Shown here piece by piece: positions 3 through 649 of a stretch of DNA of 649 bases. Made by a program: the position numbers and the translations under genes. The DNA is from Escherichia coli. GTDB taxonomy: Bacteria; Pseudomonadota; Gammaproteobacteria; Enterobacterales; Enterobacteriaceae. The stretch lies in assembly GCF_003334305.1 (NCBI RefSeq), contig NZ_QOWS01000072.1. The stretch is one strand, 5' to 3'. Within the stretch, counting starts at the first letter, position 1; every line of letters begins with the position of its first letter. Under the pieces are notes generated by a model. It had not been told where the DNA came from, did not search any database, and was given only the letters and a program-made list of their open reading frames with translations.

Positions 3-25
3 GGTAATGCTGCCAACTTACTGAT
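3..25 (+). repeat. IS1 left terminal inverted repeat (IRL), 23 bp
   Basis: GGTAATGCTGCCAACTTACTGAT; differs from the IRL of K-12-type IS1 as I recall it (GGTGATGCTGCCAACTTACTGAT) at one position (4th base G->A). The partner IRR is outside the window, so the inverted-repeat pairing cannot be shown here. Confidence 0.85.
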
Positions 26-40
26 TTAGTGTATGATGGT
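9..40 (+). promoter_or_regulatory. Probable insA promoter (pIRL) overlapping the IRL, which is also the InsA binding/autorepression region
   Basis: A -10-like hexamer TATGAT at 32..37 lies just upstream of the insA RBS and start; in IS1 the insA promoter is known to lie partly within IRL. The -35 element is not clearly identifiable by eye, so boundaries are approximate. Confidence 0.35.
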
Positions 41-46
41 GATTTT

Positions 47-52
47 AAGGTG
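47..52 (+). promoter_or_regulatory. Shine-Dalgarno sequence for insA
   Basis: AAGGTG at 47..52, 5 nt upstream of the GTG start codon at 58..60. Confidence 0.5.
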
Positions 53-57
53 CTTGC

Positions 58-333
58 GTGGCTTCCATTTCCATCAGATGTCCTTCCTGCTCCGCTACTG
101 AAGGCGTGGTGCGTAACGGCAAAAGCACTGCCGGACATCAGCGCTATCTCTGCTCTCATTGCCGTAAAACATGGCAACTACAGTTCACTTACACCGCCTC
201 TCAGCCCGGTAAGCACCAGAAAATCATTGATATGGCCATGAATGGCGTCGGATGTCGCGCCAGTGCACGCATTATGGGCGTTGGCCTCAACACGGTTTTA
301 CATCACTTAAAAAACTCAGGCCGCAGTCGGTAA
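58..333 (+). CDS. insA: IS1 InsA protein (91 aa): transposition inhibitor / transcriptional repressor and N-terminal DNA-binding part of the InsAB' transposase
   Basis: ORF 58..333 with GTG start and TAA stop at 331..333; translation [37 protein letters not shown]... carries a C-x2-C-x20-C-x2-C zinc-finger motif (C8, C11, C32, C35) and a C-terminal HTH-like segment ([30 protein letters not shown]). Near-identical to recalled InsA with about 7 substitutions (e.g. V4I, S7R, D15E, T52K). Confidence 0.93.
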
Positions 334-649
334 CCTCGCGCATACAACCGGGCAGTGATGTGATTGTCTGCGCTGAAATGGACGAACAGTGGGGCTACGT
401 CGGTGCTAAATCACGTCAGCGCTGGCTGTTTTACGCGTATGACAGGATACGGAGGACGGTTGTGGCGCACGTCTTCGGTGAACGCACTCTGGCCACACTG
501 GAGCGTCTTCTGAGCCTGCTGTCGGCCTTTGAGGTCGTGGTATAGATGACGGATGGCTGGCCGCTGTATGAATCACGCCTGAAGGGAAAGCTGCACGTTA
601 TCAGCAAGCGTTACACTCAGCGCATTGAGCGACATAATCTGAATCTGAG
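252..649 (+). pseudogene. insB: IS1 insB frame (transposase catalytic part), interrupted by an in-frame TAG at 543..545 and 3'-partial at the window edge
   Basis: ORF 252..545 ([64 protein letters not shown]...) matches recalled InsB ([27 protein letters not shown]...). It ends at TAG 543..545, where canonical IS1 has TGG (Trp) in the motif DVVIWMTDGW. The same frame then continues open over 546..647 as [34 protein letters not shown], matching canonical InsB. Classed as pseudogene only because of the internal stop; a sequencing error or suppression are alternatives. Confidence 0.7.
307..315 (+). promoter_or_regulatory. Programmed -1 ribosomal frameshift (slippery) site TTAAAAAAC linking insA to the insB frame
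   Basis: TTA-AAA-AAC in the insA frame (codons 307-309, 310-312, 313-315; A6 run 309..314 followed by C315) is the established IS1 A6C frameshift motif. The -1 frame reads CTT AAA AAA CTC (L K K L), which continues into the InsB-like frame. The insA stop (331..333) lies 16 nt downstream. Confidence 0.85.

Follow-up and report, generated by a model that had tools for sequence, protein, structure and literature searches.

IS1 makes a small amount of InsAB' transposase relative to its InsA repressor by a -1 shift at an A6C motif, which is the published route for this element (PMC12428005, PMC4066793, PMC5009743). A module of this kind lies at positions 307-333 of a 649-nt stretch of Escherichia coli DNA (contig NZ_QOWS01000072.1), which was analysed as a whole and is called the window below. 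A first-pass annotation took the preservation of the module to show that the regulatory architecture of the element is intact, even though the downstream frame carries a stop. The question raised by this locus is whether a preserved recoding signal means a working element.

Our analysis indicates that 307-333 is very probably the canonical programmed -1 ribosomal frameshift signal of IS1, located in an IS1F-type copy that is unable to make its own transposase. The IS1 A6C frameshift at this position had been identified correctly. The signal has been known since 1989 and the gene is already annotated: RefSeq names it "IS1 family transposase" or "IS1-like element IS1F family transposase", adds the note "programmed frameshift; internal stop", and gives it the status of a pseudogene with an internal stop. 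The value of the analysis therefore lies mainly in annotation and interpretation, in that an intact recoding signal is not equivalent to an active element.

The window contains the left part of an IS1F-type element

Positions 3-649 of the window are the left 647 bp of an IS1F-type IS1. The whole window matched seven E. coli chromosomes at 100% identity and thousands at 99% or more. Comparison with IS1F of K-12 (the fec/KpLE2-linked copy; type IV IS1 of Umeda and Ohtsubo 1991) revealed 99.8% identity over 3-649, with a single mismatch in 647 positions, at 302. The two copies have their left terminal inverted repeat (IRL), the A6C and TAA module and the TAG at codon 163 in common. The 'consensus' IS1 of the IS1A/IS1E type (IS1R-like) has the same 768-bp organisation as the window element, with 90.4% overall identity between IS1A and the window copy.

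The IRL (3-32, + strand; GGTAATGCTGCC...) is of the IS1F type according to the subtype alignment, and its extent of about 30 bp follows PMC12428005. Its beginning, GGTAATGCTGCCAACTTACTGATTTAGTG at position 3, aligns from the first base with the ends of IS1A, IS1B, IS1X2, IS1X3 and IS1SD, and the host DNA just 5' of position 3 varies between copies. The right inverted repeat (IRR) is outside the window but present in an exact-match genome, which gives an element of 768 bp. A consensus scan found a putative sigma-70-like promoter, CTGCCA-16-TATGAT, at 10-37 (+ strand), overlapping the IRL. This is the position expected of the weak IS1 promoter, since that promoter partly overlaps the IRL (PMC12428005). 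A second sigma-70-like match, GTTACA-17-CATAAT, is found within insB' at 610-638 (+ strand). These two are the matches observed in the window, compared with 0.5 expected in shuffled sequence.

A Shine-Dalgarno-like AAGGTG at 47-52 (+ strand) is located 5 nt 5' of the GTG start of insA. The insA gene (58-333, + strand) is the only long + strand open reading frame covering the slip site, and the RefSeq CDS begins at the same position 58. It ends with TAA at 331-333 and encodes 91 amino acids with a zinc ribbon and an HTH DNA-binding region, i.e., the IS1 repressor. InsA contains the Pfam domains PF03811 (residues 1-36, E = 2.5e-19) and PF12759 (residues 43-86, E = 4.6e-25), and scored 41.2 bits against NCBIfam NF050000, for which the cutoff is 28. 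For the conceptual transframe protein, Pfam revealed Zn_ribbon_InsA, HTH_Tnp_IS1 and DDE_Tnp_IS1, the last of which (PF03400, E = 7e-52) starts at residue 102. Against NF033558, the equivalog model of the IS1 transposase with a cutoff of 100, the 162-aa product of the window copy scored 171.7 bits, and the same protein with the TAG read as Trp and continued scored 224.6 bits. These scores, together with the three IS1 Pfam domains, bear out the identity of the element as IS1.

The slippery heptamer is in register with insA

The sequence of 307-333 is TTAAAAAACTCAGGCCGCAGTCGGTAA. Position 307 is the start of an insA codon (307 - 58 = 249 = 3 x 83), so that the insA frame reads TTA (307-309), AAA (310-312) and AAC (313-315), followed at 316-333 (+ strand) by the five-codon spacer TCA GGC CGC AGT CGG and the insA stop TAA. 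The slippery heptamer A_AAA_AAC (A6C) thus lies at 309-315 (+ strand) in the register needed for -1 slippage, as had been claimed. Its assignment as the -1 ribosomal frameshift site draws on the sequence, the register, the subtype comparison and published work (PMC12428005, PMC4066793). The nearby insA stop that had been pointed out is TAA at 331-333, 15 nt (five codons) past AAC. The -1 frame is stop-free from 249 to 542, in agreement with the statement that it is open from the slip site into the InsB frame. It is closed by TAG at 543-545, which is the downstream stop mentioned from the start, and is open again up to the window end. The insB' frame read after the slip (312-542, + strand) comprises 77 codons for a linker and the first part of DDE_Tnp_IS1, and encodes the first catalytic Asp, D109 (in EMDEQW).

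The copy at 309-315 (+ strand) is the only AAAAAAC of the window. The chance expectation is 0.04 matches on both strands, and at least one match was found in 8 of 200 shuffles. A chance origin of the heptamer was ruled out by this expectation together with the homology evidence.

The -1 shift at A6C is established for the IS1A type (Sekine and Ohtsubo 1989, Escoubas et al. 1991, as cited in PMC12428005), and replacement of the A6C of IS1A by a fused frame increased transposition about 1000-fold (PMC12428005). In E. coli, A_AA.A_AA.C has been measured as a low-efficiency -1 heptamer, above 0.10% without stimulators (PMC4066793). It is among the more frequent motifs of IS1/IS3-family elements, and IS1 is a cited example of a deliberately inefficient frameshift site (PMC4066793, PMC5009743). 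The sites of IS3-family elements and dnaX resemble IS1 in using -1 tandem slippage on an A-rich heptamer, and such sites join a DNA-binding ORF on the upstream side with a catalytic one that follows it (PMC5009743, PMC4066793). However, the IS3-family and dnaX sites have A_AAA_AAG with a pseudoknot or hairpin and an upstream Shine-Dalgarno element, whereas IS1 has the low-efficiency AAC variant.

ISEc30, an IS1 family element in Escherichia phage Rac-SA53 (L016, 144-909), has only 44% protein identity. Its slip region reads ACT TTA AAA AAC, followed by TCG CGC CAA AGC GAA and TAA. The heptamer and its register are as in the window, there are again five codons to the insA TAA, and no stop interrupts the -1 frame on its way into the DDE domain. 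Unlike the window copy, ISEc30 has an intact transposase frame and an annotated 8-bp duplication at its flanks. The comparison suggests that the distance to the insA stop may be constrained, besides the heptamer. The nucleotides around the kept motif in ISEc30 differ from those in IS1F.

The IS1 copy in Escherichia phage RCS47 (FO818745.1; L017, 452-458) has A7C instead of A6C. This gives a single fused 232-aa insAB ORF for which the frameshift is unneeded, i.e., a natural equivalent of the engineered hyperactive mutants, although a homopolymer sequencing error is possible.

Structure around the slip site

A possible pseudoknot was mentioned without data in the 2025 IS1 papers (PMC12428005, PMC12903888). 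Minimum free energy folding of 309-420, 316-375 and 33-nt segments did not support any stimulatory structure, with z-scores from -0.3 to +0.9 among IS1 variants. A hairpin pairing 320-323 with 328-331 (4 bp, -3.7 kcal/mol) was weak and no better than in shuffled sequence, and a small hairpin in ISEc30 was unconvincing (z = -1.5). A search of Rfam at E ≤ 10 returned two chance-level matches and no frameshift element, and no upstream Shine-Dalgarno-like element was detectable at the slip site of the window copy. Because no structure was supported, the shift efficiency is not inferable from structure. Sekine and Ohtsubo 1992 (Mol Gen Genet 235:325) reportedly found the downstream structures to be dispensable and the insA stop codon to modulate the efficiency.

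An amber codon truncates the transposase

The alignment, the reading frame and the 'internal stop' of RefSeq all place an amber TAG at 543-545 (+ strand), where it replaces the Trp163 codon. Codon 163 is TGG in every other IS1 subtype sampled. The shifted product of the window copy is cut at 162 residues, compared with 232 in full-length InsAB'. IS1A, in contrast, has TGG at this codon, encodes the complete 232-aa InsAB' and transposes autonomously, and essentially all IS1 transposition in K-12 is due to the IS1A type (PMC12428005).

In a transposase alignment of IS1F, IS1A and ISEc30, the invariant acidic residues are D109 (EMDEQW), D166 (TDGW) and E191 (QRIER). A DDE triad was reportedly described for IS1 by Ohta et al. 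2002 (J Bacteriol 184:6146; cited in PMC12903888). On the basis of the three aligned sequences, D109, D166 and E191 fit this triad. The TAG lies three codons 5' of D166 and separates D109 from D166 and E191, so that no single polypeptide has the complete triad. The rest of insB' past the stop (546-649, + strand) begins with the native Met164 ATG, encodes D166 (MTDGW) and E191 (RIERH) and continues past the window; this part is out of reach for a shifted ribosome. Judged from its sequence, the window copy is an IS1 family member by descent, but a defective one.

The frequencies of the two alleles were obtained with SNP-centred 48-mer searches of 5,426 E. coli genomes. TAG at 543-545 was found in 2,974 genomes (3,860 places), K-12 derivatives included, usually as one copy. 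TGG at codon 163 was found in 3,379 of the 5,426 genomes (18,198 places), on IS1F-like and related backbones. Exact "repaired" TGG versions of the window sequence exist, some of them at the same chromosomal sites. In E. coli PD007, which has a K-12-sized genome, the IS1F at the K-12 fec/yjhU position (L006, 2503-3270) has TGG and an intact transposase, annotated WP_244589562.1, whereas TAG is the allele at this site in the K-12 derivatives CETR3G40 and JM109. Copies of either allele are likewise present at the HD-domain/hchA site. This alternation of TGG and TAG at one site could result from reversion, gene conversion or sequencing error.

In K-12 BW25113, IS1F is essentially immobile alone and makes no detectable contribution to transposition (PMC12428005). 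Overproduced InsAB' in trans mobilises IS1F, and does so more readily than other defective copies (PMC12903888). In the portions of text that we searched, these two 2025 papers discuss the immobility of IS1F via amino-acid substitutions and inverted repeat differences, and the same portions contain no mention of an amber codon at Trp163. The amber codon is a sufficient explanation for the immobility of IS1F alone.

Preservation of the module reflects recency

That preservation of the module shows an intact regulatory architecture was not supported. Intact relatives differ from the window copy by one or two bases; therefore, seven unchanged bases are expected by default and are no evidence of selection. 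The 44 nt at 303-346, which take in the heptamer and the spacer and run on to 13 nt past the insA stop, are identical to those of transposition-competent IS1A. TTAAAAAACTCAG followed by TAA is kept in all 13 IS1 subtypes sampled (90-100% identity), but conservation of the slip region is uninformative among these subtypes at identities of at least 90%, as 22% of the other 44-nt coding windows were equally conserved. This stretch, A6C included, and the TAA were also kept in 80 of 80 IS1F-like copies from viral contigs, a sample ranked toward intact ORFs. A scan of viral contigs for distant relatives, using the three-sequence transposase alignment, returned close relatives only, and an exact-pattern scan of viral contigs for the TAG allele returned a single locus, which did not suffice to compare dN/dS between insA and insB'. 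That the motif is preserved is a matter of recency and not of demonstrated selection.

The output of the module is broken in this copy. The shifted product ends at residue 162 of 232, without D166 and E191, and InsA has the substitution R82H. At position 302 (+ strand), the alignment shows A for G as the sole difference from the common IS1F in the window, also distinguishing the window copy from that of K-12, and codon 82 of insA is changed from CGT to CAT (Arg to His). R82H is within the HTH, and the changed base is 7 nt 5' of the heptamer. R82 is invariant in IS1F, IS1A and ISEc30 in the three-sequence alignment. The A302 allele was found in 97 genomes (164 places) and is not restricted to the locus of the window. 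The term "intact" thus holds for the 27-nt signal only, as the transposase arm is truncated and the repressor arm is substituted at a conserved residue. R82H, which affects InsA and InsAB' alike, adjoins L81, and the substitution L81F is discussed in PMC12428005.

Sister copies with the TAG allele carry changes in the slip region itself. In two of them (L099 and L101), 321 is changed from C to T, which is synonymous in insA and replaces Pro with Ser in the -1 frame. In L098 (ATCC 25922) and L103 (ST1193), 324 is changed from C to T, which is synonymous in insA (CGC to CGT) and turns CAG into TAG in the -1 frame, giving a stop four codons past the slip site. The 324T allele occurs in IS1 copies of 868 genomes, including ATCC 25922 and ST131 EC958, and in both copies sequenced from among these 868 genomes the backbone is the TAG-allele IS1F. 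In the TAG-allele IS1F lineage, the module is decaying and the open -1 frame is being lost; the window copy still has it.

Proposed mechanism and alternative explanations

In the mechanism that we propose, ribosomes translating insA would normally stop at TAA 331-333 and produce the 91-aa InsA repressor. A small fraction would slip back one base on A_AAA_AAC (309-315) and enter the insB' frame through a Leu-Lys-Lys-Leu junction. In a functional IS1, this slip would lead to the 232-aa InsAB' transposase. In the window copy, the shifted ribosome would meet TAG 543-545 and release a 162-aa protein. Both DNA-binding regions (zinc ribbon and HTH) and the first catalytic Asp would be retained in this protein, whereas the second Asp and the Glu would be missing. 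Lacking these two residues in its product, the copy would be non-autonomous and would move only with transposase from another IS1. We infer that the window copy is transcribed and retains the usual low rate of shifting; its truncated 162-aa product is presumably catalytically dead. The literature provides that the A6C shift occurs and is required, and that IS1F is immobile alone and mobilised in trans (PMC12428005, PMC12903888). The window copy can still be mobilised in this way.

The wide spread of the amber allele, present in 2,974 of the 5,426 genomes and usually as one copy, could also mean that amber IS1F copies are retained as regulators, with InsA and the 162-aa DNA-binding InsAB' damping active IS1 in trans. 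InsA is a known IS1 repressor (PMC12428005), insA and the slip site are intact in the window, and 321T and 324T are both synonymous in insA while damaging the -1 frame. However, the high frequency of TAG is explained by linkage to the fec island, six of seven fec-context copies being at one site, and 324T removes the truncated InsAB' product in 868 genomes. In addition, R82H falls on an otherwise invariant HTH residue of the window InsA, K52T is also polymorphic, and the insA changes (two nonsynonymous and two synonymous) carry no signal of purifying selection. We consider a regulatory role of this kind improbable. The shift itself might be attributed to RNA polymerase slippage on the A6 run, with an extra A in the mRNA, instead of ribosome slippage. 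Transcriptional slippage does operate in a substantial number of IS elements (PMC5009743), and the A7C of the IS1 in phage RCS47 shows that a base can be added to the run in DNA, but reviews place IS1 among the ribosomal-frameshifting elements (PMC5009743, PMC4066793), and ISEc30 conserves both the heptamer register and the logic of Lys-tRNA re-pairing. For transcriptional slippage to be efficient in E. coli, a run of about nine or more is required. The protein sequence across the IS1 junction was reportedly determined by Sekine, Nagasawa and Ohtsubo (1992). Polymerase slippage is, in our judgement, even less probable than the regulatory role.

The copy would be functional after all if the TAG were bypassed, either by amber suppression or read-through, or by restart at ATG 546-548 to give a two-piece transposase. 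Amber suppressors are carried by many laboratory K-12 strains. The TAG directly adjoins the native in-frame ATG of Met164 (546-548), and the IS1F-specific GAGG at 531-534 lies 11 nt upstream, where IS1A has GACG. However, assembly of a catalytic core that is divided between D109 and D166 is improbable, target-site duplications are absent from the TAG copies examined, and IS1F transposition in BW25113 was undetected unless InsAB' was supplied (PMC12428005, PMC12903888). A bypass is the least probable of the three explanations, with hardly any chance of being correct. The stop-restart geometry at 531-548 could in principle give a 69-aa C-terminal fragment. Neither amber IS1F copies acting as dampers in trans nor a TAG-ATG restart giving a two-piece transposase has positive support, and the chance that one or the other operates is slim. 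Ribosomal slippage at A6C in a copy whose transposase frame is closed by TAG is the reading that we prefer.

Genomic sites of the TAG copies and the mosaic element

Most TAG copies represent a single fec-linked IS1F that accompanies the fec island even where the island is on a plasmid. Among the fec-context copies sampled, six of seven were at the same fecI-ykiE-adjacent site. TAG copies were found at three further sites, namely HD-domain/hchA, decarboxylase-antiporter/IS600 (the site of the window) and mdtM/brnT. An 8-9 bp target-site duplication was absent from all TAG copies examined (L001-L003, L098-L100 and L102, at four distinct sites). In a TGG copy (L008), by contrast, a perfect 9-bp duplication, AATAACTTC, is present. 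The missing duplication is consistent with later rearrangement and is no argument against IS1 ancestry. In the K-12-like PD007 (L006), the right flank is unlike that of the other fec-linked copies, which suggests an adjacent deletion.

In the three exact-match genomes examined, the element comes after a gene pair for an Orn/Lys/Arg decarboxylase and an antiporter, and is directly adjacent to a truncated IS600. In an exact-match genome, the element has GCTGCAAATC as its left flank and TACAACTGGG as its right flank, and the two share no direct repeat. The element of these genomes differs from K-12 IS1F in this location, between the decarboxylase/antiporter pair and the IS600 fragment, and in its last ~120 bp, which are IS1A-like. 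Beyond the window, 650-766 are identical to IS1A, with nine differences from IS1F (650-752), and a tenth difference falls at 767. Because 3-649 are IS1F-like and 650-766 are IS1A-like, the element is an IS1F/IS1A mosaic. Its IS1F-like part reaches window position 638, and the window end coincides with the junction. The mosaic structure shows that the window copy is still usable as a recombination substrate. In E. coli ATCC 43896, where the continuation past 649 lies at 3650-3768 of locus L001, the complete element of 768 bp is such a mosaic, as it is in L004 and L005. Base 767 of the mosaic element, in the IRR, is common to neither IS1F nor IS1A.
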